Source: Myxococcales bacterium
GTDB lineage: Bacteria; Myxococcota; UBA727; JABDBI01
Direction: 5' to 3'
NCBI GenBank assembly: GCA_947445025.1
Contig: CANFCB010000002.1
Location: forward strand, 18,802 to 82,801
DNA: 64,000 bases
Shown here: piece by piece, positions 45,043 through 57,134 of the stretch
How positions within the stretch are numbered: position 1 is the stretch's first letter
How the letters are laid out: each line of letters begins with the position of its first letter
Program-made: the position numbers and the translations under genes
Notes under the pieces: generated by a model
What the model was told of the DNA's origin: nothing
The model's input: only the letters and a program-made list of their open reading frames with translations
The model's database searches: none

Positions 45043-46106
45043 TTTGCTAAACTCAAATGAAGAGGGGGGTTATGGAAAATTTCCTGTGAAGGCGGCCCCA
45101 TACACGCCAAAGCAGTTTGTGCCTTGAGATCCATGACCAGGGCGCCGCAGGTTGCCACAGAGTGGCCAAGCTCTGGCTTAGGAGCAAGCGAGACATGGCC
45201 GAACAATTCGTACATATCGTTGCTTGAAGAAATTGGAGTATGGGGAAGTCGTTTTTCCAATTCCTGGTAGCGTGAATAGGTTGTAGAAGTTGATTTGACG
45301 GTGTGAGTTAATTGCATTTCCGCATCAAGGCAGTGATTGGTGTGAAAATGGGTTTTGTTACTTCCACGCTGGGTGATTTTCTTTTTGGTGCCGCTGGTTT
45401 CAATACCAAAAAAATCCTGTTTATCGGCGACGCAATAATGATGTCCTGACCCCAGTGACGCTTGTAAAATCAAATCGCAGCCTTGCTTAGCGCTGCTTTG
45501 TTTGAGAACTTTGCGTACCAGAGCAGGCCACACAATTCCAATTTTGGCATCGGTACTGTTAAGATTATTGATGCAAATGCCCACCGCATGATTATTCATG
45601 CCCGTCATGCCAAGGCAGCCAGCGATGCTGAAAAGCAGAATATCAGTTTCTCTGTTTCTTATTTTTAGTATCACAACATGGTCAATCGCTGAGCTGTCGA
45701 TATCCCATGTTTGTCCAAGCAAAGGGCCGCTTGCTGCTTTGCTATAAATAACCGAACAACCTTTGGCATCATCGCCGTCGCGGTGAAAATGGTTGGGACG
45801 TAAATCACGCAGATCAGTGTAATGGTTTAGTACAACAATCTCTTCAGGGCTAAGTCCGCTGCCTTCTGCTATACCCAATACTTCCAAGTATAGATCTTCG
45901 TCAAAGTCTTTCAAGATGGGCAGGTGGGCGCTGGCTATTTCTAAAACCTGCTTTTCAGAAGGAAAAGCCGCGTCTGTGCACATAAGCTCAAGGCGGATTT
46001 GTGCCATAGCGCGAACTTGATTGCGCAGGGTTTCTCCGTGAATTTGTCCGCAGCGTCGCGGATTGCTACTGTCTAATGCGAGTATAGGTGGTTTAGGATA
46101 TGGCAT
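45039..46106 (-). CDS. peptidase C45 / acyl-CoA:6-aminopenicillanic-acid acyltransferase-like Ntn hydrolase
   Basis: R(C)G..HGE is found near the N-terminus. The putative autoprocessing nucleophile is in DDAKGCSVIY. GQTWD and HTNHC motifs are present. An ATGA overlap links it to the downstream aminotransferase. Confidence 0.7.
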   Translation of the reverse strand: MPYPKPPILALDSSNPRRCGQIHGETLRNQVRAMAQIRLELMCTDAAFPSEKQVLEIASAHLPILKDFDEDLYLEVLGIAEGSGLSPEEIVVLNHYTDLRDLRPNHFHRDGDDAKGCSVIYSKAASGPLLGQTWDIDSSAIDHVVILKIRNRETDILLFSIAGCLGMTGMNNHAVGICINNLNSTDAKIGIVWPALVRKVLKQSSAKQGCDLILQASLGSGHHYCVADKQDFFGIETSGTKKKITQRGSNKTHFHTNHCLDAEMQLTHTVKSTSTTYSRYQELEKRLPHTPISSSNDMYELFGHVSLAPKPELGHSVATCGALVMDLKAQTALACMGPPSQEIFHNPPLHLSLAK

Positions 46107-49100
46107 GATTTAAAATCTCAAACCCGCGGTGCATTTCTTCTTTAGATACGTTAATGGCAGGACAGATAACAATACGATGGTTGCAGCCTAGGCCTAATTG
46201 TAAACCCGAAGCCGCGGCTTTTTTAATAACATGTTGGCATTGGTCTTGACTTTTCATGGTAAGTGTATGCCACAGTCCTTGACCGTGTCGAGGTAAAGGC
46301 CAATTGATTTGCCTAATCATATTTTCAAAATTAGTAGCATAGTTGGTTTTGAGGCATTCGTTAGCAACCAGTAAATGTTGATAGGTTCTCTTCATGGATA
46401 TTTCGTCGCCATCCCAGGTGGAAATCAAGGTGAGTGGTGTGGGGACGTAGTGCTGATGATCGACGAAGACGTGGCCTAGCTGAGCACCGGCATACCACCA
46501 AACCATGTTCGGTTTTACCAAGAGGCTGTCACTTTTAAAAATAGTTTTGCCACTTCTACCAAAAGCAGAAGCGGTCTCCACAAAAATAAGTGGCACAGAT
46601 GTTTCTTGTCGAATGGTATTTAGGCCATTTAAAAAATTATCGGAAACAAGGTACCCGCTTTTTTCTCCGATGAGTTCAATCACAATTCCTAAAATGCGAT
46701 CGCTCGAATAGCGCTTAATTTGGTTTCTAATTTCTGCTAAACTAGTGGCATCACTAGATTCAACCGGATGTTGAACTTTGGGCCAATCAAACCAGGTGAA
46801 GGGATTTTGATAATCACTTTCATCGCTGATACTTCTGGCTGCCGCAGTAGTGTGACCAACATATTGTCGTTTGAGTCCAATTACCACGTCACCAGCAGGC
46901 CTGCTAACTCTTAAAGATCTAAGACCTTTATCGACGACTTCGTCGCGACCAGATGTAAAGTAAGTATGCTGACAAGCTTTGGGCATGAGGCGTTTTAAGA
47001 GTTCAGCATAACGCACAAGGCTCGGGGTAACCCAATTAGAAAGTGTAAGTTTAGTGGCCACTGCCGATGTAAACATGCCATTTTCTATCGCTGCTTGTAT
47101 CTTTGGAGATTGCAGTCCTAAAGGCGCTTGAATAGAAGACGACCAGTCAATTACCTGCTTCGATATTGCCGCTAAGCTTTTAGCTAGAGCGCACCTAGGA
47201 TTTCTGAGGGGGATACGATAGTAAAGTGCCTTGCCGCCAGTATCGCCGTACTGATTCTGGTAAATAGCGACAGTATGTGCACCAAAAAATTGATTAATGC
47301 GGCTAATTTCTGGTGTAAAACCAACCCGATTACGGCCGGTCATAAAGTCGTATCTATAAGAGCCATCCACTTTTTTCATGGATCTCGCCAGATTTACCTG
47401 AGCTGATTTTAGCTTAAACCCAAAACCTTGTTTGCGTAATTCTTTACTGATAACTACGTTGGCAGAATAAAAAGTGTTATCAAGGCCGCGCATTTTGTCT
47501 TGCAAAGGACCATCTGTATGGCAGTGCTCAAGCGGTCCACCAATGGCGAAGCCTAAAATTTGCTTGCCATCAGGTGTTTTTTTAATCAGGATAAGACCAA
47601 GGCTGTCTTTTTGTGCAATAAATTCTTTTAAAAAACCCATGGAATCGCGACGTCCTAGCTCGTAAGTAGCATCTTCTAAATTTTTTATTTGATCTTGGTG
47701 CTCAGGCCAAGAATCCAAAGTCAAAACTTCAATGGCGAAGTCTTTTTCATCATGTCGTAAACTAAAAATCCCCCCACCACCTTTTTCTAAGGGGGAATTT
47801 GGCGGTGAGAGGGGGATCCAATCAGGAGCAACTTGGTCTGGGTTATTTTGTAAGAAGAGCAAGGCTTGTTTTAAGTTGTCGAAGAAGACGCTTAATTCTT
47901 TAGCAGTTGTCGACAAATTAAAACGAAAGCGCACTGTTTTTTCGCCGGCAATGTAAACCATAAAACCACGGTAGAAGCGCTGGTTGATGATTTGCATGGC
48001 AAGTGCGTGAGAGGGTAAATCAAAAGCAAAAGCATAGCCTTGATGACGGACATTAAGCACCAAATCGGGAAATTGTCTTGTTAAATCGAAAGTCTGCTTT
48101 TCAATTTCTAATTTTAAATTAGCCAAAAGCGCTTGTTGCTCCAGCATGGCTAGTCCTTGCAAGTATCCTCGAATAATTTGCACAACATGGGGCGCTGTAG
48201 GTCTTGAGTCTTTCCAGACCGATAAGCAAACACCAAGCTGCGCTTTTTTAGCTAGTGTGATGCAGTCGGGTCCGTCGAGGTTGCCGGCAGCATCGCGTAA
48301 TTGAAAATCGCTGTGGGCATAAAAAGGTCCGAGTAAACCAAATCCAGTTTGCACCTCGTCAAAGATGAGCGGCACTTTAAGGGCCCTTGTCAAAGCACGC
48401 AGACCATTAAAGAAACGCTTGCTTGCATAATTGTCGCCGCCTTCACACTGCATGGGCTCAATGATGACGGCGCAAATGTCGCCTTTTTGAATTTCGCTTT
48501 TTAGGCATTGCAAAGAATCAATTTCGGCTTGCAGTAAGGGGTCATGCGGCAAAGCTTGCGGACGTTCAGCTTTTGACCAGGCGGCAATCCATTCATAGGT
48601 AATCTCGGGTTCGTTTTCAAAATCACTTCGTTTGGGAAAAGGAATGAACGTCGCCTGGTAACCTATGAACTCAAACTGAGCGCGTTTTTGTGGATTGTAA
48701 GTTGCCTGCAAGGACATCAAGGTGCGACCATGAAAACTGCCCTCAAAAGCAATGATGCGCTTTCCTCCAGGTCCATTAAGCCTGCAAAGATCGAAGGCTT
48801 TTTCATTTGCTTCGGCGCCTGCCGAGGTAAAAGTTGCATGCTGTATGCTGGGACCTGCTTGTTGCAGCAAAAATTGCGAATATTTTTCTATCCATATTTT
48901 TGCCTCTGCGCTGTTTTCTGAATTGGCCAGTAAGCTTGCGGTTAAATCGCCTTCGGTGAGTGCCTTCAGATAGGGGTCTGCCTGAAAACCTAATCCCAGC
49001 GAGGCGATTTGGCTGGCGGCATCAAAAATAACCAACGGATCAGCATCGATGGAAGCAAGAAACGCTCCTTTGGAAATCCGCAAATCAATCACAGGTGTTT

Positions 49101-50907
49101 TCTTTTCCTTGGGAAGAAAATCGTCCTGATAAAGACGGCGCAGCATGGCTGTTGAGCGCGGAAATTTTTCAGAAGTTGGAATATTAATTTGAGCAGCAAA
49201 CGGTTTGATTAAAGAAACGAAACTGTCGTCATGTAACTTTTTTAAAAAAGCGCTCATATCGCGTAAAAAGACTTCAAGCTGGCTTTCTTCGGGAAGAGTG
49301 ATAACCGAATTCTTTTCACAAAATATCGACGCCCCACGAACGTCCTCGATGGGGATCTGGTAATTTTCCAGCATTTCCTCTAAAGCATGGCGCGCTACCA
49401 GTGTTGATAGCGAAATGTCGAGATTGTTTTTTTCTTTCTCAAGTAAATCTACCATGTTGGTAGGTACTTGAGTATGGCCGTATTCTAAATAGTTTACCGC
49501 GACCGGAAAAGTTGTGTAGCGAACCGCGTCGATGCCAGCCGCACGCTGGTTTCCGCTTTTACCCACACCGCCAAAGGGTTGTTCTCCATAGGCGCCATTG
49601 GTACTTCTATTCCAATTTAAAACACCGGAACGTGTTTGTTGATAATACCGCTCAAAGAAAGCCTTGTTTGCGGTAAAAACAGCATTGGATAAACCGTATG
49701 CGCTTTGGTTGGTTTTATTAATAGCCTCGTCAATGCCATCAATAATTTCAATGCATATGTCTGGGCCAAAGAGTTCGATGTCTAGGTATCCGGTGGCTGC
49801 TTGGCCTTTGCCTAAGTGTAGCGACGGCTCAACAAAAGCACCGCCACCCAGAAATTGACTTTTGACTAAAACTTCACAGCCGGAGCTTTCGGCATTTTTT
49901 AAGAGGCTGGTGAATCTGTCTTTGGCTGCTAGGCTTGCTAGTGGACCAAAAATAGTTTGAGCATTGGTTGGATCTCCAGGTTTTAAACTTTTAACAATTT
50001 TGACCAACGAATTAATAAAGCGATCAGCGACGGTTTTATCGACAAGGACACGACTGGTGGCTGTGCATCGTTGCCCCGTAGTCAAAAAGGCGCCTTGAGT
50101 AATTTCTGCCAGCGCTTGGTAGAGGTCGGCATCTTTTAAAACTACAGCAATGTTTTTACCGCCCATTTCCAGTGCTAACATTTTATGGGGTTCATCGAGG
50201 ATGGACTCGGCGAGCGCTCGACCGGTGGCATAACTTCCCGTAAATAAAATACCGCTAATCAAAGCATGCTTTGCTAGAGCTTTGCCTATATCGGCTTTGC
50301 CTTGGACTAGATTAAAAACACCGGCAGGAAAATTGGCTTCGTGAATACAGTCGGCATAGATTTCACCCACCCAAGGACAAATCTCGCTAAATTTAACCAC
50401 GACAGTATTGCCGGTAATTAGTGCCGGAATAACATGAGCATTGACGAGGTGTGCGGGAAAATTATAGGGGCCCAATACTGCCAAGACACCTTGCGCATGA
50501 TAGCGTGTTTCTCCCAGTATTCCTGCGGGTTTCTCGTTGCTCACACGCTTGATGCCGTGATTGGCCATGAGATCGATGCGCGCACTTAAATTTTTTGCTT
50601 CGCTTAAACTTTCACTTAAAACCTTCCCCATCTCGCTGGTAATGGCATGGGCCATTTGCTTTTCCTTTTGGACAAAAGCAGCTTTTAGACGCATCAGGCA
50701 GTTGAGGCGATCTGTCATGTCTAATGCGGACCAATGTGGCATGGCTTGGTGTGCAGATTTTACGGCGAGGTCGACATGAGCAAGTGCCGTTTTTGTTGTA
50801 AACACAGGCGAATAATCAGTAGCAGGATTAACACTGACAATTTCGCACTCGTCAGCATTCACAAACTGACCGTTAATAAAGTTGCCTTTTCCTCGATGAA
50901 TGGTCAT
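46093..50907 (-). CDS. 1604-aa four-domain fusion: AstD-like aldehyde dehydrogenase, class III aminotransferase, GNAT acyltransferase, degenerate class III aminotransferase-like domain
   Basis: aa 1-490 are colinear with succinylglutamate-semialdehyde dehydrogenase (GVLAVLGPYNFPAHL, LALEMGGKN, TTGQRCTATSR, GVLNWNR, PFGGVGKSGN). aa ~590-1010 form an aminotransferase (TSAGAEANEKA, GSFHGRT, IFDEVQTGFG, ITLAKKAQLG). aa ~1040-1195 form a GNAT (LRKQGFGFKL). aa ~1200-1604 resemble an aminotransferase but read IFVETASAFGRSGK and VWWYAGAQLG. Confidence 0.8.
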   Translation of the reverse strand: MTIHRGKGNFINGQFVNADECEIVSVNPATDYSPVFTTKTALAHVDLAVKSAHQAMPHWSALDMTDRLNCLMRLKAAFVQKEKQMAHAITSEMGKVLSESLSEAKNLSARIDLMANHGIKRVSNEKPAGILGETRYHAQGVLAVLGPYNFPAHLVNAHVIPALITGNTVVVKFSEICPWVGEIYADCIHEANFPAGVFNLVQGKADIGKALAKHALISGILFTGSYATGRALAESILDEPHKMLALEMGGKNIAVVLKDADLYQALAEITQGAFLTTGQRCTATSRVLVDKTVADRFINSLVKIVKSLKPGDPTNAQTIFGPLASLAAKDRFTSLLKNAESSGCEVLVKSQFLGGGAFVEPSLHLGKGQAATGYLDIELFGPDICIEIIDGIDEAINKTNQSAYGLSNAVFTANKAFFERYYQQTRSGVLNWNRSTNGAYGEQPFGGVGKSGNQRAAGIDAVRYTTFPVAVNYLEYGHTQVPTNMVDLLEKEKNNLDISLSTLVARHALEEMLENYQIPIEDVRGASIFCEKNSVITLPEESQLEVFLRDMSAFLKKLHDDSFVSLIKPFAAQINIPTSEKFPRSTAMLRRLYQDDFLPKEKKTPVIDLRISKGAFLASIDADPLVIFDAASQIASLGLGFQADPYLKALTEGDLTASLLANSENSAEAKIWIEKYSQFLLQQAGPSIQHATFTSAGAEANEKAFDLCRLNGPGGKRIIAFEGSFHGRTLMSLQATYNPQKRAQFEFIGYQATFIPFPKRSDFENEPEITYEWIAAWSKAERPQALPHDPLLQAEIDSLQCLKSEIQKGDICAVIIEPMQCEGGDNYASKRFFNGLRALTRALKVPLIFDEVQTGFGLLGPFYAHSDFQLRDAAGNLDGPDCITLAKKAQLGVCLSVWKDSRPTAPHVVQIIRGYLQGLAMLEQQALLANLKLEIEKQTFDLTRQFPDLVLNVRHQGYAFAFDLPSHALAMQIINQRFYRGFMVYIAGEKTVRFRFNLSTTAKELSVFFDNLKQALLFLQNNPDQVAPDWIPLSPPNSPLEKGGGGIFSLRHDEKDFAIEVLTLDSWPEHQDQIKNLEDATYELGRRDSMGFLKEFIAQKDSLGLILIKKTPDGKQILGFAIGGPLEHCHTDGPLQDKMRGLDNTFYSANVVISKELRKQGFGFKLKSAQVNLARSMKKVDGSYRYDFMTGRNRVGFTPEISRINQFFGAHTVAIYQNQYGDTGGKALYYRIPLRNPRCALAKSLAAISKQVIDWSSSIQAPLGLQSPKIQAAIENGMFTSAVATKLTLSNWVTPSLVRYAELLKRLMPKACQHTYFTSGRDEVVDKGLRSLRVSRPAGDVVIGLKRQYVGHTTAAARSISDESDYQNPFTWFDWPKVQHPVESSDATSLAEIRNQIKRYSSDRILGIVIELIGEKSGYLVSDNFLNGLNTIRQETSVPLIFVETASAFGRSGKTIFKSDSLLVKPNMVWWYAGAQLGHVFVDHQHYVPTPLTLISTWDGDEISMKRTYQHLLVANECLKTNYATNFENMIRQINWPLPRHGQGLWHTLTMKSQDQCQHVIKKAAASGLQLGLGCNHRIVICPAINVSKEEMHRGFEILNHAIS

Positions 50908-50930
50908 GAGTCACCTCAATTAAATTGAAA

Positions 50931-51971
50931 TTATTTGATCCATCTTGCCTTAATTTTGTTCGTGCTGTTATCTGAGGCTGTGCGTATTATCTCTTCGTTG
51001 ACCTTATTAAAATATTTATTATCAAAACTGGCGAATAAGAATGCGTAGTGCTCCCCGGCAAGCAAGGTGCTCAAGAGAATTGCCTGTGTTTCGTGGTGAT
51101 CTTTAATATAGTAACGTAGCAGTGCTTTATCGTAGACAATAGCGTATACTGTATCGTTTTCCAATTGAGAAAAGGCATTATCCATTGTATTCGCTAGGTA
51201 ATTGATTGTGTTAAAATCTTCATTGACTAAATCCGCGATGGCTTGATCCGCAACGACAACTTTTTTCCCATTTAACGACTGACCGATAAAGTTTTCCTGG
51301 GTGTTTTCTGTGTGTGTAAAAAAAGAGGTAAGGCTGGCAATAATCGATGCGTAAAGTAAACATCCAAACACCATCCATAGGCTGGCAACGATGCGCCCTT
51401 TCCAGTAAGCAGGAAATTTCATATAGCCATTGGTTGTCAATGTGGAAAGAGTAAACCAGATGCCTTCTGAAATGGCATCTTTAGGGTTAGCATGGAATTG
51501 TTCATTATTGGCTTTACGTTCAAAAGTCCAAATCAAAAATGCAGTCAGAAGAAAGAATAAAACTAAGATTATGGCGTAAAAAAAGAAATTTTTCCCAATA
51601 ATGTTCTTAACATGCTGCCAGTATGTGTGAGATTTTTGTAAGGTAGCAGCCCCCAGTTGCACGCGGTGATAAGGCTGGGTATAGGCAAAATTTTTGGCCA
51701 ACTCAGGCGTAACAGCAATCGGGCCAACTAGTAAGTCGACACTATGATCTTTGAGGGCTTGCAAAGCTTGCTCTAGACTGTCAAAATTCTTGAATTCGGT
51801 TTTTAGTTGCAGCCGTTCGGCAATGATGTTCCATAAACCGATGCTAAATCCGGTGACCTGGTTCTCTTTCCAGATTACATAAGGCGGATCGCCGATAGTC
51901 CCAACTTTTATTTGCTCTGAATTAGCGACAAAAGAAACAAATAAACATGAAAACAATAAAAAAAAGCGCAT
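50931..51971 (-). CDS. GluR0-like ligand-gated ion channel: periplasmic-binding-protein lobes interrupted by a 2-TM K-channel-like pore
   Basis: After the signal peptide, the S1 lobe is IKVGTIGDPPYV...DLLVGPIAVTPELAKNFAYTQPY. M1 is FFFYAIILVLFFLLTAFLIWTF. The pore is EGIWFTLSTLTTNGYMKF. M2 is IVASLWMVFGCLLYASIIASL. The S2 lobe is GKKVVVADQAIADLV...YAIVYDKALLRYY. The ORF track uses GTG 51986, which forms a GTGA overlap with the upstream stop. Confidence 0.75.
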   Translation of the reverse strand: MRFFLLFSCLFVSFVANSEQIKVGTIGDPPYVIWKENQVTGFSIGLWNIIAERLQLKTEFKNFDSLEQALQALKDHSVDLLVGPIAVTPELAKNFAYTQPYHRVQLGAATLQKSHTYWQHVKNIIGKNFFFYAIILVLFFLLTAFLIWTFERKANNEQFHANPKDAISEGIWFTLSTLTTNGYMKFPAYWKGRIVASLWMVFGCLLYASIIASLTSFFTHTENTQENFIGQSLNGKKVVVADQAIADLVNEDFNTINYLANTMDNAFSQLENDTVYAIVYDKALLRYYIKDHHETQAILLSTLLAGEHYAFLFASFDNKYFNKVNEEIIRTASDNSTNKIKARWIK

Positions 51972-51982
51972 CAAAATATCCC

Positions 51983-52342
51983 TCACCTAGCCGAAATGAG
52001 TTTTCCAAAGATGGAACTGACGATGCTGACCATTAAAGCACCTAAGAAAGTGGCCCAAAAGCCGTTCACGGTAAAACCAAATCCCATTTCATGGCCCAAA
52101 TAACCGGCAAACCAAAACATAATCATGTTGGCAATCAAAAGCCACAAACCAAGTGTTAGGAAAACAAAAGGAAAAGTGAAAAATTTAAAGATGGGACCGA
52201 TGACGGTGTTGACCAGGCCGGCAACAACGGCAATGAACACTATATCCCATCTGCTTTGAGCAGCAGTGGTAATTCCTGGAACCACGAGGATAGCGGCAAA
52301 AAAACCAGCAGCATTTACTAACCAACGCGCAAAAAATTTCAT
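51983..52342 (-). CDS. DUF360/YvlD-type (phage-holin-4-like) small membrane protein
   Basis: Four-TM pattern: LVNAAGFFAAILVVPGI..., VAGLVNTVIGPIFKFFTFPFVFLTLGLWLLIANMIMFWFAGYL. An RBS (ggag) lies 6 nt before ATG 52342. Confidence 0.65.
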   Translation of the reverse strand: MKFFARWLVNAAGFFAAILVVPGITTAAQSRWDIVFIAVVAGLVNTVIGPIFKFFTFPFVFLTLGLWLLIANMIMFWFAGYLGHEMGFGFTVNGFWATFLGALMVSIVSSIFGKLISAR

Positions 52343-52352
52343 ATAATCTCCA

Positions 52353-52751
52353 CTATTTAGTATGCTGCCCAAGATAGCGTGCATAGGCGACACTGTCCAT
52401 AAGTTCGTCTAGATGCTCAGGTTGTTTGATGAGGATTTTAATCATCCAAGCTTTTTCATAAGGATCTTGGTTGATGTCTTCAGGGTGATTGACCAAGGCT
52501 TCGTTTACCGCTACAACAACGCCAGCCAAAGGCGAAAATAAATCACTGACAGCCTTCACGCTTTCAACAGTGCCAAAAATTTTATCTTTCTCGACGGTTT
52601 TTCCTATTTCAGGCAATTCCAGGTAAACCACGTCTCCTAGCTGTTGTTGGGCATGATGGGTAATGCCTATGGTAACGACGTTGTCATCTTGTGCTGAAGC
52701 CCATTCATGTTCTTTGGTGTACTTTAAGTGAGCTGGTATATGTGCCGTCAT
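52353..52751 (-). CDS. gcvH: glycine cleavage system H protein
   Basis: YTKEHEWA, ITHHAQQQLGDVVYLELPEIG and the lipoyl-Lys context VESVKAVSDLFSP are present. An ATGA overlap links it to gcvT. Confidence 0.95.
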   Translation of the reverse strand: MTAHIPAHLKYTKEHEWASAQDDNVVTIGITHHAQQQLGDVVYLELPEIGKTVEKDKIFGTVESVKAVSDLFSPLAGVVVAVNEALVNHPEDINQDPYEKAWMIKILIKQPEHLDELMDSVAYARYLGQHTK

Positions 52752-53854
52752 GATAACTCCTTGGTGGCTTTCTTATAAAAAGGGATAGGGACGATTTGTG
52801 CAGGAATCAGCTGCCCTCTTATATCAACAGCAACTTCTGTTCCAGGGTGCATGAAAGTACCGTTAACGTAGCCAAGTGCGATGGCTTGATTCAAGTAGGG
52901 AGTTTGTGTGCCCGAAGTGACGATGCCAATGCGTTCTCCGGTTTTTGCGTGAATGCTGTAACCATGACGCGCAATTCCTTTTCCGATAACGCGTAGGCCA
53001 CAAAGTTTTTTTGCAATGCCGTTTAATTTTTGTTTCTGCAGCGCATCCTGACCTATGAAAGGGATAGTCTTGTTTAATTTAACAACAAAGTCGAGGCCTG
53101 CTTCTAAAGGTGTGGTGTCCTCGTCAATATCGTTTCCGTAAAGACACATGCCGGCTTCAAGCCTCAATGTGTCTCTGGCCGCGAGTCCACAGGGTATTAC
53201 GCCCCATAGCGCTCCAACTTTTAGGAGTGCTTCCCAGACTAGAGCGGCATCTCTTGCTGGCACATAAAGTTCAAAGCCATCTTCTCCAGTATAGCCAGTG
53301 CGTGCAATAATGGCATCTGTAGTTTGCAGTTCCAGATGCAGTTTTCCCTCGACAAAATGATAGCGCTTGAGAAAACCCAGCTCTTTTTGGCTAAGCGCAG
53401 CCACTAAATCAAGGGCACGAGGACCCTGAACCGCGATTTGCGCAAAATCATCACTGACATCTTTGGCGTAACTGCAATTTTCACGAATCCAGTTGAAATC
53501 TTTTTCTCGATTAGAAGCGTTAACGCAAATTAAAAATTTCTCAGCAGAAAACTTGCAAGCCACGACATCGTCGATAATTTTTCCCTCGGTGTTTAACATG
53601 GCAGCATAAAAAGCTTGGCCATTTTGCATTTTAGTAGCGTCGTTAGTTAAAAGGCGGTTGATATCTTCTTCTGCCAGAGGGCCCGCTATTAAAATTTCTC
53701 CCATATGGCTGACATCAAATAATCCGACTTTTTCGCGCACCGCCATGTGCTCGACTTTGTCGCCGCTATAACGTACCGGCATTTCGAAACCGCCGAAGTC
53801 TGTCATTTGTGCGCCCAAGCGAATATGACAATCATAAAGAGGGGTGCGCTTCAT
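52748..53854 (-). CDS. gcvT: glycine cleavage system T protein (aminomethyltransferase)
   Basis: MKRTPLYD...GAQMTDFGGFEMPVRY, DVSHMGE and ARTGYTGEDGFE are present; 368 aa. Confidence 0.95.
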   Translation of the reverse strand: MKRTPLYDCHIRLGAQMTDFGGFEMPVRYSGDKVEHMAVREKVGLFDVSHMGEILIAGPLAEEDINRLLTNDATKMQNGQAFYAAMLNTEGKIIDDVVACKFSAEKFLICVNASNREKDFNWIRENCSYAKDVSDDFAQIAVQGPRALDLVAALSQKELGFLKRYHFVEGKLHLELQTTDAIIARTGYTGEDGFELYVPARDAALVWEALLKVGALWGVIPCGLAARDTLRLEAGMCLYGNDIDEDTTPLEAGLDFVVKLNKTIPFIGQDALQKQKLNGIAKKLCGLRVIGKGIARHGYSIHAKTGERIGIVTSGTQTPYLNQAIALGYVNGTFMHPGTEVAVDIRGQLIPAQIVPIPFYKKATKELS

Positions 53855-53869
53855 ACTTAATCCTAAGTT

Positions 53870-54721
53870 TTAAGAAAGATGATGCCGGTATGCTGCAACA
53901 GTATTTTCTAGCAGCATGGAAATGGTCATGGGGCCTACACCTCCAGGCACCGGCGTGATAGCCGCTGCTTTGTTTTTGACAGCATCAAAATCTACGTCGC
54001 CAACCAGAGTGCCATCTTCTAGCTTATTGATGCCGACATCAATGATAACCACGCCTTCTTTGACGTCGCCTTCGCCAATTAGATGGGGGATACCCGTGGC
54101 GGTAATTAGAATATCTGCTTGTCTAGTATGTTCGCGCAAATTGCGCGTATTGCTATGGCAAATGGTTACAGTTGCATCGGTATTGAGCATCATATAAGCC
54201 ATGGGCTTACCGACGATTATGCTGCGTCCGACAATGACCGCGTGTGCGCCTAGGAGTTTGCTTTTGGATGCTTGAATCAAATACATGCAACCTTTAGGCG
54301 TGCAGGGGAGAAAGCGCGGGTGGCCTAAAGACAATTTGCCAATATTTTCCGGATGAAATCCATCGACGTCTTTGTCAGGATTGACCGCATAGATAACCAA
54401 GCTGGTGTCGATGTGCGCTGGCAAAGGTAGTTGCACTAAAATGCCATCAACCTCGCCCTGGTTATTTAACTCTTCAATCAGGGTGAGTAATTCCAATTGA
54501 GTAGTTTGAGTAGGTAGATCATATTTAAAACTTTTGATACCGACGTCATCTGCTCGTTTTCTTTTGTTGCGCACATAAACAGCACTGGCAGGATCGTTAC
54601 CTAGTAAGATGGTGGCAAGTCCTGGCGCTCTAAATCCTTTTTGCCGATAACTTGCGACTTCATTTTTTAGTCCATCGAGAATTTGGCGGGACATGGCTTT
54701 TCCGTCGAGAATCTGTGTCAT
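53870..54721 (-). CDS. folD: bifunctional 5,10-methylene-THF dehydrogenase / methenyl-THF cyclohydrolase
   Basis: ILDGKA, YVRNKRK, GILVQLPLP, VDGFHP, VVGRSIIVGKP and PVPGGVGPMT are present. Confidence 0.95.
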   Translation of the reverse strand: MTQILDGKAMSRQILDGLKNEVASYRQKGFRAPGLATILLGNDPASAVYVRNKRKRADDVGIKSFKYDLPTQTTQLELLTLIEELNNQGEVDGILVQLPLPAHIDTSLVIYAVNPDKDVDGFHPENIGKLSLGHPRFLPCTPKGCMYLIQASKSKLLGAHAVIVGRSIIVGKPMAYMMLNTDATVTICHSNTRNLREHTRQADILITATGIPHLIGEGDVKEGVVIIDVGINKLEDGTLVGDVDFDAVKNKAAAITPVPGGVGPMTISMLLENTVAAYRHHLS

Positions 54722-54744
54722 GCATCGTCACCTTTTAAAAACTT

Positions 54745-54779
54745 GAAAAAGCTGGCTACGCTGTCCATGCCGCTTTTTT
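54745..54779. promoter_or_regulatory. terminator-like hairpin in the 154-bp divergent folD / sulP-CA leader region
   Basis: The stem aaaaagc(t)ggc / gccgcttttt (10 bp, one bulge) has a 12-nt loop. T-runs follow it on both strands. It ends 25 nt upstream of the folD ATG on the minus strand. Confidence 0.3.
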
Positions 54780-54875
54780 TAGTAACATGCAATACACGTA
54801 GCACTAAGAGGTTTTGCGTTTTAGCCGAGAATCAACGTATTGTCCGAATGACAAATTATCGTAATAGCAACGTTC

Positions 54876-57134
54876 ATGAAAACAACTTATTTTCGTTTTG
54901 ATCTGGGCATTCGTTCTTTATTACCACAGTGGCGGTTGTTGATCGGAAAACTTTATTGGCGAGAAGATTTTTTTGCCGGCCTCACGCTTGCATTGGTAGC
55001 CGTTCCTCTGTCGCTGGCGATTGCGCTGGCTTCTGGTGTTGATCCGGCCATTGGGTTAATAACCGCGATCGTCGCCGGTATTGTTTGTGCTTTGTTCGGA
55101 GGAAATTCTATTTCTGTGAGCGGTCCTGCGGCTGCCATGGCAGTGATGGTTGGACTTGCCGTTGAAAAGTATGGAATGTCGGGGCTTATATTTATTGGCA
55201 TTATTTGTGGTTTGTTACAGATTGCTACTGGTGTATTTGGGCTAGGGCGTTTTGTTCGCTTGATGCCTATTGCCGTGATTGAAGGATTTACGGCTGGTAT
55301 CGGGGCCATTATTTTGATTGCTCAGTTGCCGCGAGCTTTCGGGTTGCCGGCTCCCAGTGAATCTCATACGATTGACGTCTTGGTTCATATAGGGACTTTG
55401 ATAGATGAAAGTAAGGGCGCTCCGGTTTTGGTTGCTGTGGGCGTTATTTTTCTCTTATGGATAATACCAAAAATATCGTCAAAGATTCCGTCGCCTCTTA
55501 TCGCCATTGCCGTCCCCAGTATGCTGGCAGCTTATTTTTTTGAAGGGCAATTGTTGCTGATTGGAGAGATTCCCAGAAGTTTGCCTCTTCCAAGCTTTCC
55601 GGTGTGGCCATCAGGAATTAGTTGGATTGAGCTGCTGGGGACAGCGGTTTTAATTTATGCTTTAGCTTCTTTGGAAACGCTATTGTCTTCGACAGCTGTC
55701 GACAAATTGGTGAGAGGACAGCATAGTGATTTAGACCAAGAATTAATTGGGCAGGGACTTGGTAATTTGGTTGTGCCTTTTTTCGGAGGGATTCCTGTGA
55801 CGGGCGTTATTGTTCGCTCGGCAACCAACGTCATGGCTGGGGCAAAAACCCGGCGTTCATCGATTATACATTCGTTAATTTTGGTGGCGACGGTATTGTT
55901 GCTGGCACCCTTGATTAGTCAAATTCCCATTGCTGCTTTAGCTGGTTTGCTTTTGTCTATCGCTGCTAGAATGATGAATCCGGAAAAATTTATTAATCTT
56001 TGGAATTTGTCTCGTTCAGATGCGGCAGTTTATGGCATTACTTTTTTGGTTATTGTATTTGTTGATTTACTGCAGGGTGTGCAGTGGGGATTAGTGGCGG
56101 CACTCGCTGTCGTTGCCCTGCAACTGGGAAGAACGCGGGTTCAATTTTATGGATCTGGCTCTGGTTCATCAGGTTCGTATCGCTTTGAATTGCAGGGACC
56201 ATTAACGTTTCTGTCTTCACTCAAAATAGATGAATTAAAAAGTCACGTAGCTGAGCTAGATGGAGGACGTGGAATTACTATCGATATGCATGCGGTCACA
56301 GAAATTGATGGCTCAGGTGCGGAGATGTTGCTAGAATTAATTCATGAACTGCTTGAACGCGGCCTTAAAGTTGCTGTCTTAGATTTACCAGAGAAAGAAA
56401 AGGCTTTCTTAATTTCGGCTGATTCTTCAGGAAGAATATCCAAGCTAATTGCTTCAACCGAGCAAGAGTTAATGCAAATATTGGAAGGAAGTATTTCAGG
56501 CGATCCGGCTTTAAGGCTCGAAAAGGGCCTGAATCGGTTTCTTAAAGATGAGCGGCATCGTTATAAAAAATTATTTGGTGAATTGGCCCATGGTCAGTCT
56601 CCTCATACACTTTTTATTACCTGTTCAGACAGTCGCATTCAGCCGAATTTGATGACATCGACGGACCCGGGCGAGCTGTTTATTGTTCGAAACGTAGGGA
56701 ATATGATTCCAAAGTGTGCAGAGGGTGAAGTTTTTGCAGAATCAGCTGCCGTTGATTTTGCCGTGGGTATCTTGGGTGTTCGCGAGATTGTGGTTTGTGG
56801 TCATTCGAGTTGTGGAGCGATGCAAGCTTTGCATGGTCGTCAAGAGCTACCGAGTAATCTAAAAAATCTAGAAGCTTGGCGAAAAGCTACGGTACAGAAT
56901 GAAGCCTATCATTCATTACCGGCAGCAATGCCGATTGACGAAGTAGCGCGTATTAATGCTTTGCATCAACTTGACAATTTGCGCTCCTATCCACTGGTTC
57001 GTGAGAAGGAGCAGGCCGGCGTTCTAAAACTCCATGCTTGGTTCTTTGAGATTGCCAACGGGGAAGTTGAAATTTGGTCTTCGGATAGAAAAAAGTATTT
57101 TAGGCATTCTGAGTCTTTGAAGATGAGAAACTAA
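54876..57134 (+). CDS. SulP/SLC26 anion transporter fused to a STAS domain and a C-terminal beta-carbonic anhydrase
   Basis: SulP TM core (DFFAGLTLALVAVPLSLAIALASGV..., VTGVIVRSATNVMAGAKTR). The STAS segment is YRFELQGPLTFLSSLKI...GSGAEMLLEL. The beta-CA part has PHTLFITCSDSRIQP, VRNVGN and VVCGHSSCGAM. Confidence 0.9.
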   Translation: MKTTYFRFDLGIRSLLPQWRLLIGKLYWREDFFAGLTLALVAVPLSLAIALASGVDPAIGLITAIVAGIVCALFGGNSISVSGPAAAMAVMVGLAVEKYGMSGLIFIGIICGLLQIATGVFGLGRFVRLMPIAVIEGFTAGIGAIILIAQLPRAFGLPAPSESHTIDVLVHIGTLIDESKGAPVLVAVGVIFLLWIIPKISSKIPSPLIAIAVPSMLAAYFFEGQLLLIGEIPRSLPLPSFPVWPSGISWIELLGTAVLIYALASLETLLSSTAVDKLVRGQHSDLDQELIGQGLGNLVVPFFGGIPVTGVIVRSATNVMAGAKTRRSSIIHSLILVATVLLLAPLISQIPIAALAGLLLSIAARMMNPEKFINLWNLSRSDAAVYGITFLVIVFVDLLQGVQWGLVAALAVVALQLGRTRVQFYGSGSGSSGSYRFELQGPLTFLSSLKIDELKSHVAELDGGRGITIDMHAVTEIDGSGAEMLLELIHELLERGLKVAVLDLPEKEKAFLISADSSGRISKLIASTEQELMQILEGSISGDPALRLEKGLNRFLKDERHRYKKLFGELAHGQSPHTLFITCSDSRIQPNLMTSTDPGELFIVRNVGNMIPKCAEGEVFAESAAVDFAVGILGVREIVVCGHSSCGAMQALHGRQELPSNLKNLEAWRKATVQNEAYHSLPAAMPIDEVARINALHQLDNLRSYPLVREKEQAGVLKLHAWFFEIANGEVEIWSSDRKKYFRHSESLKMRN

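Follow-up and report, generated by a model that had tools for sequence, protein, structure and literature searches.

The GluR0-Like Gene and Its Product

The DNA analyzed here (referred to below as the window) is a stretch of 64,000 nucleotides from a Myxococcales bacterium (GenBank assembly GCA_947445025.1, contig CANFCB010000002.1, positions 18,802 to 82,801 of the forward strand). Its reverse strand carries a gene encoding a homolog of GluR0, the prokaryotic ionotropic glutamate receptor (iGluR), in which, according to the alignments, both the residues gripping the amino-acid ligand and the K+ selectivity filter are altered. The mechanical open reading frame (ORF) occupies positions 50931..51986 (-) and encodes 351 residues; the GTG at 51986, to which it extends, is counted as residue 1 in the numbering used below. 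Translation probably begins at the ATG at 51971, giving a product of 346 residues and a gene (50931..51971 (-), stop codon included) 15 nt shorter than the mechanical ORF, since this Met is the first residue (MRFF.../MRLF...) of all the orthologs (P0002/P0003) and of an independently called gene (P0001), and since the Shine-Dalgarno-like sequence GGTGAGGG, resembling a ribosome-binding site, is located 8 nt upstream of it. The letters upstream of the gene read ...GCTAGGTGAGGGATATTTTGATGCGC. A start at the GTG would overlap the stop codon of the preceding gene, and a start at the ATG gives no overlap. The signal peptide, MRFFLLFSCLFVSFVANS (ORF residues 6-23, 51918..51971 (-)), was recognized from the sequence, with a predicted cleavage site, and the structural model shows an N-terminal helix at residues 2-19. 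The motif LFSC was considered as a lipobox and rejected, its Cys not being conserved among the orthologs.

The product consists, in this order, of the signal peptide, an SBP_bac_3 lobe 1, a first membrane helix (M1), a pore helix, a second membrane helix (M2), and lobe 2. The Pfam family SBP_bac_3 was matched over residues 26-350 (1.3e-19), split by Lig_chan at residues 140-230 (9.5e-15); Ion_trans_2 scored 25.1 bits versus a cut-off of 22.5, and the NCBIfam matches to GlnH, ArtJ, and LAO-type binding proteins were all sub-threshold. The closest PDB entries by sequence were the GluR0 cores of Synechocystis (1ii5/1iit, 5.5e-16) and Nostoc (2pyy), and the solved structures closest to the membrane part were KCNQ2, KcsA, and eukaryotic GLR, kainate, and NMDA subunits. 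In the AlphaFold2 model, built from a 133-sequence alignment (mean predicted local distance difference test score, pLDDT, 93.4), helices 132-156, 168-184, and 195-228 lie between two alpha/beta lobes. Foldseek searches of the PDB with this model returned chains comprising the ligand-binding and transmembrane (TM) domains of AMPA (GluA1-4), NMDA (GluN), and delta (GluD) receptors (E ~1e-18), together with the GluR0 core 1ii5 at TMt 0.79. Since the Pfam matches, the pLDDT 93 model, and the Foldseek matches all agree, the protein is, in family and fold, a genuine prokaryotic member of the GluR0/iGluR superfamily, and the iGluR architecture recognized in a first-pass annotation of the window is borne out.

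The S1 segment, which forms the main part of lobe 1, spans residues 24-120 (51627..51917 (-)); it belongs to the SBP_bac_3 match and aligns with residues 5-97 of 1ii5/1iit (E = 1e-12). The M1 helix (residues 132-156, 51519..51593 (-), from the DSSP assignment of the model and the conserved columns) ends in the conserved W153/E156, and is followed by the pore helix (residues 168-184, 51435..51485 (-), from the model and the alignment), the filter segment TLTTNGYMKF (residues 182-191, 51414..51443 (-), from the alignments), and the M2 inner helix (residues 195-228, 51303..51404 (-), from the model), which carries the substitutions S213A and T216I. Lobe 2 is formed in the main by the S2 segment, residues 231-351 (50934..51296 (-), from the alignment and the model). 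There is neither an amino-terminal domain nor a fourth membrane segment (M4), the modeled chain ending at residue 351 inside lobe 2. The topology is, by homology, that of GluR0, with both termini outside the cell as reported for that protein (PMC13099474). A soluble SBP_bac_3 binding protein of an ATP-binding cassette (ABC) transporter was rejected as an identity for this product, since the two-helix pore insert is present and no ABC genes were found within the surrounding 12 kb.

The Ligand-Binding Pocket

In the HMMER alignments, the lobe-1 motif reading GPISVTPERA in GluR0 and AAISITAERE in the Nostoc GluR0 reads GPIAVTPELA in the query, so that the column of the Arg binding the alpha-carboxylate is occupied by Leu96 (codon TTG, 51699..51701 (-)). 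This replacement, already pointed out in the first-pass annotation, recurred in two further alignments and hence in three altogether. When the query was aligned by MAFFT with the best 150 representatives from an exhaustive search of 1.84 billion proteins (1441 matches at E < 1e-10), 138 of the 153 sequences had Arg in this column, and in a second alignment Arg was present in 96% of the 134 homologs outside the query's own group. The members of that group, which is described below as a clade, have Leu or Ile at this position.

Three other contacts, not mentioned previously, have changed as well: Ala91 (51714..51716 (-), from the alignment) stands in place of the lobe-1 Ser/Thr (the position of GluA2 T480), and Gln248 and Ala249 replace the Ser/Thr pair capping the lobe-2 helix (GluA2 S654-T655; Thr-Thr in GluR0). 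The residues conserved in the query are Asp286 (GluA2 E705), in a column that is Asp in 93% of the sequences, Tyr314 (GluA2 Y732), and Pro89; in the ortholog P0003, the Asp286 position is Ser. The GluA2 residues to which these columns, and the Arg column (R485), are assigned are those we take to be equivalent after Armstrong and Gouaux (2000). Throughout the clade the lobe-1 Ser/Thr has become Ala or Pro and the lobe-2 pair Gln-Ala, and the clade is further marked by the change F36Y in the PPF motif and the loss of Pro from the D-x-P motif. The MAFFT and HMMER alignments differed by one residue at the lobe-2 G-S/T motif, and this conflict was settled by the model, in which the strand ends at residue 245 and the helix starts at residue 248. 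An apparent gain of Asp from Gly in lobe 2 was dropped after realignment, since GluR0 itself has Asp there.

As far as the alignments go, the canonical grip on alpha-amino acids is dismantled, four of the canonical ligand contacts being lost. If the pore is gated by a ligand at all, this is thus unlikely to be a free alpha-amino acid in the classical binding mode, and the first-pass inference to that effect is strengthened. A cationic ligand would be compatible with a pocket that has lost its only basic residue and kept Asp286. The amines or N-acyl compounds that the first-pass annotation offered as candidate ligands are pure conjecture.

The Selectivity Filter and the Pore

The filter of the query reads TTNGYM-K, versus the family consensus TTVGYGD. 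The differences consist of V186N, G189M, and a one-codon deletion removing the Asp; in the family, the Val is conserved in 90% of the sequences, the second Gly in 96%, and the Asp that follows it in 95%. With a gap of one residue, TLTTNGYM-KFP can be matched to the KCNQ2 segment TLTTIGYGDKYP, and the KcsA pore also aligns to this region; the P-loop lacks the K+ signature T-V-G-Y-G-D. The non-canonical filter TLTTNGYMKF noted in the first-pass annotation was also found in a second, independent metagenome assembly (L034), the identical sequence of which led us to reject an assembly error as the cause of the deletion. The alignments with GluR0 and its family, of the kind that annotation had proposed as a check, show neither an Arg at the ligand position nor a standard TVGYG filter.

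In the pore helix, the Gly conserved in 98% of the family is replaced by Ala (G171A), and residue 181 is polymorphic (S/C) between strains. Most of the pore hallmarks are present, namely W153, E156, F164, W177, T182, T185, G187, Y188, P192, G197, and W204. In terms of sequence, G189M and the deletion of the Asp remove the outer half of TxGYGD, from which it can fairly be inferred that the selectivity of the pore differs from that for K+.

Phylogeny of the Clade and Order of Events

In a maximum-likelihood tree of 67 family members, the query belongs to a clade of six representatives supported by a Shimodaira-Hasegawa-like approximate likelihood ratio (SH-aLRT) value of 96, within which a five-member inner clade has an SH-aLRT value of 99. 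The residue at the Arg position and the filter vary among these proteins and their relatives as follows: P0007 has Arg and TGVGYGD; P0008, Leu and TGVGYGD; P0009, the protein of genome G003, Gln and TTVGYGD; P0006 and the protein of genome G006, Leu and MGVGYGD; P0004, Leu and TTGGYSD; P0005, Ile and TTGGYAE; P0002, the protein of genome G001 from the same genus as the query, and P0003, Leu and TTNGYAD; and the query itself, Leu and TTNGYM-K. This distribution indicates that the Arg was lost first and that the filter then decayed stepwise through TTGGYSD, TTNGYAD, and TTNGYM-K. The loss of the Arg is not likely to be a matter of simple decay, since the Arg-less P0006 and G006 proteins keep the canonical filter GVGYGD and every pore hallmark; it thus took place in proteins still constrained as K+-type channels. 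The Arg is also lost sporadically elsewhere in the family: the unrelated member P0131, for instance, has Leu at the Arg position (IPSPELED) and a canonical TTVGYGD, which amounts to an independent loss of the Arg.

The clade is sparse in public data. When a set of 5.8 billion proteins was searched with a profile built from the clade's alignment, the gain was limited to the G006 protein and two distant matches; a scan of the contigs of the genome collection with the single protein gave no match, and a scan of the collection with a three-sequence alignment returned only the G001 contig. The channel homolog occurs in one copy per genome. The hosts of the clade are bacteria with small genomes labeled as Myxococcota. 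The window's own metagenome-assembled genome measures 1.09 Mb at 73% completeness, and three genomes of the same GTDB family (G005, G008, and G011) measure 0.3-0.6 Mb at 87-91% completeness; this family includes strongly reduced members, which are probably host-associated.

Genomic Context

The channel gene is located between two genes of the same strand. Upstream, the stop codon of a gene for a PF04020 (DUF360/"holin 4_2") membrane protein with four TM helices (51983..52342 (-)) lies 11 nt before the channel ATG. Downstream, after the 23 nt that the first-pass annotation had correctly counted (50908..50930), begins a 1604-residue megafusion of an aldehyde dehydrogenase and a class-III aminotransferase (46093..50907 (-)). 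The genes folD-gcvT-gcvH-PF04020-channel-megafusion-C45 (AAT)-aminotransferase follow one another in the same order in the congeneric genome G001, in GCA_038920345.1, and, over the length of the sequence available, in two metagenome contigs of marine or other origin with P0004, in which the channel is 39% identical and the megafusion 61% identical. Because of the 11-nt and 23-nt gaps, the conserved order, and the absence of terminator-like sites, the channel gene is likely to be co-transcribed with the PF04020 and megafusion genes. The counts of promoters and terminators were at chance level, and no terminator was found between these three genes. An Rfam scan of positions 50500..55200 detected no family, and none was detected at positions 54722-54875, upstream of folD-gcvT-gcvH, even at E <= 1, which means that there is no recognizable glycine riboswitch there.

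Most of the relatives at the family and order levels carry the megafusion (open frames of 1430-1925 residues) without any close homolog of the channel. Genome G006 has gcvT-gcvH-PF04020-megafusion with nothing in between, its single channel homolog being located ~220 kb away: at locus L033 (G006:C2, 5112-11244), the megafusion follows gcvT-gcvH-PF04020 directly, the stop and start codons abutting (megafusions were also found at L030 and L031). In genomes G004 and G002, the megafusion occurs without gcvTH or the channel, and P0005 and P0006 have no megafusion neighbor. Since relatives have the megafusion without a channel next to it, the channel gene has moved into the gcvTH-PF04020-megafusion operon in one lineage, the ancestral arrangement being without it, and the older partner of the megafusion is suggested to be the PF04020 membrane protein rather than the channel.

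The first-pass annotation had taken the proximity of the two genes as a sign of a functional link and had proposed that their co-occurrence should be surveyed. On the one hand, the order is kept in G001, in GCA_038920345.1, and in the P0004 contigs, and channel and megafusion have stayed adjacent in four lineages, at identities as low as 39%; on the other, the megafusion is found widely in the absence of the channel, and in most relatives it has no channel neighbor. The megafusion enzyme clearly does not need the channel, and the functional link is weakly supported.

Approximately 6 kb downstream of the operon, positions 39303-40436 (+) encode a 377-residue radical-SAM protein with a lysine-2,3-aminomutase C-terminal domain, which adjoins a HisKA_3/NarL two-component pair. 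This protein may be of the EpmB type or have a part in amine metabolism.

Comparison with Known Receptors and Channels

GluR0 (Slr1257) of Synechocystis PCC 6803 is a K+ channel that opens in response to glutamate and takes part in the K+ stress response; it has been expressed in the K+-uptake-deficient E. coli strain LB2003 (PMC13099474). The query resembles GluR0 (Synechocystis and Nostoc punctiforme; 1ii5, 1iit, 2pyy) in having a signal peptide, S1, M1-P-M2, and S2 without an amino-terminal domain or M4, and in sharing the S2 Asp and most of the pore-helix and inner-helix hallmarks. It differs in having Leu96 instead of the Arg, Ala91 instead of the lobe-1 Ser, Gln-Ala instead of Thr-Thr, and TTNGYM-K instead of TTVGYGD, and the overall identity is only ~25-30%. 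The query descends from GluR0 and presumably works like it, with the Arg and TVGYG hallmarks missing from its sequence.

In the 22 prokaryotic channels analyzed by Ger et al. (2010), the Arg and Asp are "totally conserved" (PMC2950845). Their "Group 2" is likewise made up of prokaryotic S1-2TM-S2 proteins with a P region lacking the K+ signature (PMC2950845). The query was rejected as a member of Group 2, which keeps the Arg and Asp, because its own Arg is absent and because the tree places its clade among the TVGYGD-type sequences, where the filter was lost independently and gradually. Sequences that are probably Group 2 were found elsewhere in the family (P0122, P0124, P0133, P0136, and P0151): their P-loops, of the type ...AGGCENKSP..., recall the eukaryotic QQGCDI, and the ligand Arg is kept. 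Our literature search found no paper on Arg-less bacterial iGluR homologs.

In the ionotropic receptors (IRs) of insects and other protostomes, an iGluR-family binding domain lacks some or all of the residues contacting glutamate, and other chemicals are sensed (PMC2924276). The clade would have undergone the same evolutionary move, the re-tuning of the binding domain; this is an analogy, with no direct relationship, since IRs are eukaryotic proteins with an M4, co-receptors, and iGluR-type cation pores. The query was rejected as a eukaryotic variant iGluR of this type, having no third membrane-spanning helix after S2 and ending at residue 351 in lobe 2.

As regards the pore, TxGYG is described as forming four ion sites, and the two-site NaK channel as non-selective (PMC9822992). 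In NaK and the cyclic nucleotide-gated (CNG) channels, a pore derived from a K+ channel has an altered outer TVGYG half, fewer ion sites, and no K+ selectivity (PMC9822992); the likeness to the query would lie in the altered outer half. The filters there read TVGDGN and TIGETPPP, versus TTNGYM-K in the query, so that there is no membership at the sequence level.

Interpretation and Alternatives

The reading we prefer, to which we give roughly even chances, is that of a weakly selective cation pore gated by a ligand other than an amino acid. A periplasmic two-lobed binding domain is interrupted by an M1-P-M2 pore module. In the pocket of the clade, where the Arg and Ser/Thr contacts are lost and the Asp pairing with the amino group is kept, the ligand would not be a classically bound free alpha-amino acid. 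The filter changed from TTVGYGD to TTNGYAD in the tip lineage and to TTNGYM-K in the window genome, where the outer sites of the four-site filter are gone; with only its T-T-N-G part left, at most the inner sites would remain, and K+ selectivity would be lost, as in the two-site NaK. If it still conducts, the pore might be weakly cation-selective like that of NaK/CNG channels or the eukaryotic iGluRs, and not a K+ channel. The gene was relocated into the gcvTH-PF04020-megafusion operon, and the constraint on its pore is relaxed or shifted in the window genome.

Several observations weigh against this reading. The case for an unusual ligand is made from side chains only, and an amino acid could still be bound through the protein backbone and water molecules. 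Replacement of the second Gly of GYG by Met, together with the deletion, could just close or collapse the filter. Most of the others concern the uneven change of this genome's copy, and favor the main rival explanation, which we regard as possible but somewhat unlikely: the pore is dead, and the product is a (tetrameric) binding or sensor protein tethered to the membrane on the periplasmic side, with M1-P-M2 as an anchor or assembly module, or else a gene in early decay in a shrinking genome. Pairwise estimates gave ~0.2-0.3 for the nonsynonymous rate dN and values above 1 for the synonymous rate dS; by region, dS was saturated (above 1 or undefined), which makes the omega values a rough indication of purifying selection. 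Relative-rate counts of amino-acid substitutions were used instead, those unique to the window lineage being compared with those unique to G001, with P0003 as the reference. In the membrane domain (residues 121-230), 22 unique substitutions were counted in the window lineage versus 5 in G001 (binomial p = 0.0015), while lobe 1 showed the opposite (6 versus 13). The seven neighboring genes combined gave 241 and 183, respectively, from which the membrane domain differs with a Fisher p of 0.014. The pore domain of the window genome evolves ~4 times faster than its sister's, a point absent from the first-pass annotation, and the alternative raised in that annotation, that the TM insert is only an anchor, stays alive for this reason.

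The window-specific changes include G171A, G189M, the Asp deletion, and S213A and T216I in the "SSxTA" motif of M2, and thus involve the loss of three residues at least 95% conserved in the family (G171, G189, and the filter Asp). A sign of continued constraint is that the query keeps 26 of the 33 columns at least 85% conserved in the family, typical members lacking 2.2 (95th percentile, 6). The whole gene is 64% identical to its G001 counterpart, versus 75-83% in the case of its neighbors, and evolves approximately twice as fast. Even between the near-identical strains represented by the window and L034, which differ at 5 positions in 9018 bp, three of the five single-nucleotide polymorphisms fall within the channel gene (51445, 51915, and 51117), where ~0.6 would be expected from its length; they consist of E24D, S181C in the pore helix, and a synonymous change. 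With such small numbers, this excess is only a hint, which fits relaxed constraint as well as a new function.

A dead pore is at odds with the fact that the ORF is intact in both assemblies, that most of the pore hallmarks (W153 to W204) are kept, and that the TM helices have changed by conservative substitutions. The pore regions of G001 and P0003 are also 72-77% identical, more than their binding domains, on which account the TTNGYAD pore looks well constrained and the extra drift specific to the window genome; the modified pore would have been functional at least until recently. What can be said on balance is that the pore domain in the window genome is, by these counts, under relaxed or shifted constraint.

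Another explanation would be a gated pore that takes up a cationic amine or diamine; this compound would enter through a widened filter down the membrane potential and be degraded by the megafusion, the C45 hydrolase, and the aminotransferase. The tight operon and the adjacency conserved in four lineages, the loss from the pocket of its only basic residue with retention of Asp286 and Asp247, and the fact that eukaryotic iGluR pores pass polyamines all speak for this possibility, which we nevertheless find improbable: the megafusion works in most relatives without a channel gene, P0005 has a similar filter and no megafusion neighbor, and we know of no GluR0-type pore that serves in the uptake of nutrients. 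That the protein has remained, like GluR0, a K+ channel gated by amino acids, in which the ligand would be bound through Asp286, Tyr314, and backbone amides and the filter would prefer K+, is very improbable, since, despite the retention of Asp286, Tyr314, and Pro89, the unchanged fold, and the several amino acids that GluR0 itself reportedly binds (Chen et al., 1999; Mayer et al., 2001), an Arg present in 96% of the homologs and totally conserved in the 22 prokaryotic channels (PMC2950845) has been replaced, the four canonical contacts have changed together, and the second Gly of GYG and the following Asp (96% and 95% conserved, respectively) are both gone.

Implications

The clade described here breaks two hallmarks of the GluR0 family, the grip on the ligand and the K+ filter, and the sequence of events can be followed, since the pocket changed before the filter did. 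The accepted account of the origin of the glutamate receptors takes GluR0 as its model: an amino-acid-binding protein was fused with a K+ channel. More speculatively, and with a rather low probability in our estimation, the clade might be a bacterial counterpart of the insect IRs, re-tuned to a non-amino-acid and probably cationic ligand, the pore of which left K+ selectivity stepwise (TTVGYGD, TGVGYGD, TTGGYSD, TTNGYAD, TTNGYM-K) and which was recruited into an amine-catabolic operon as a sensor or entry gate. If this were true, these proteins would be natural intermediates showing how K+-channel pores become iGluR-type cation pores. The natural series, of five or six sequences, bears on what else bacterial iGluR binding domains can sense and on the filter changes needed to abolish K+ selectivity, and it calls for caution in annotating such genes as "glutamate-gated potassium channel".

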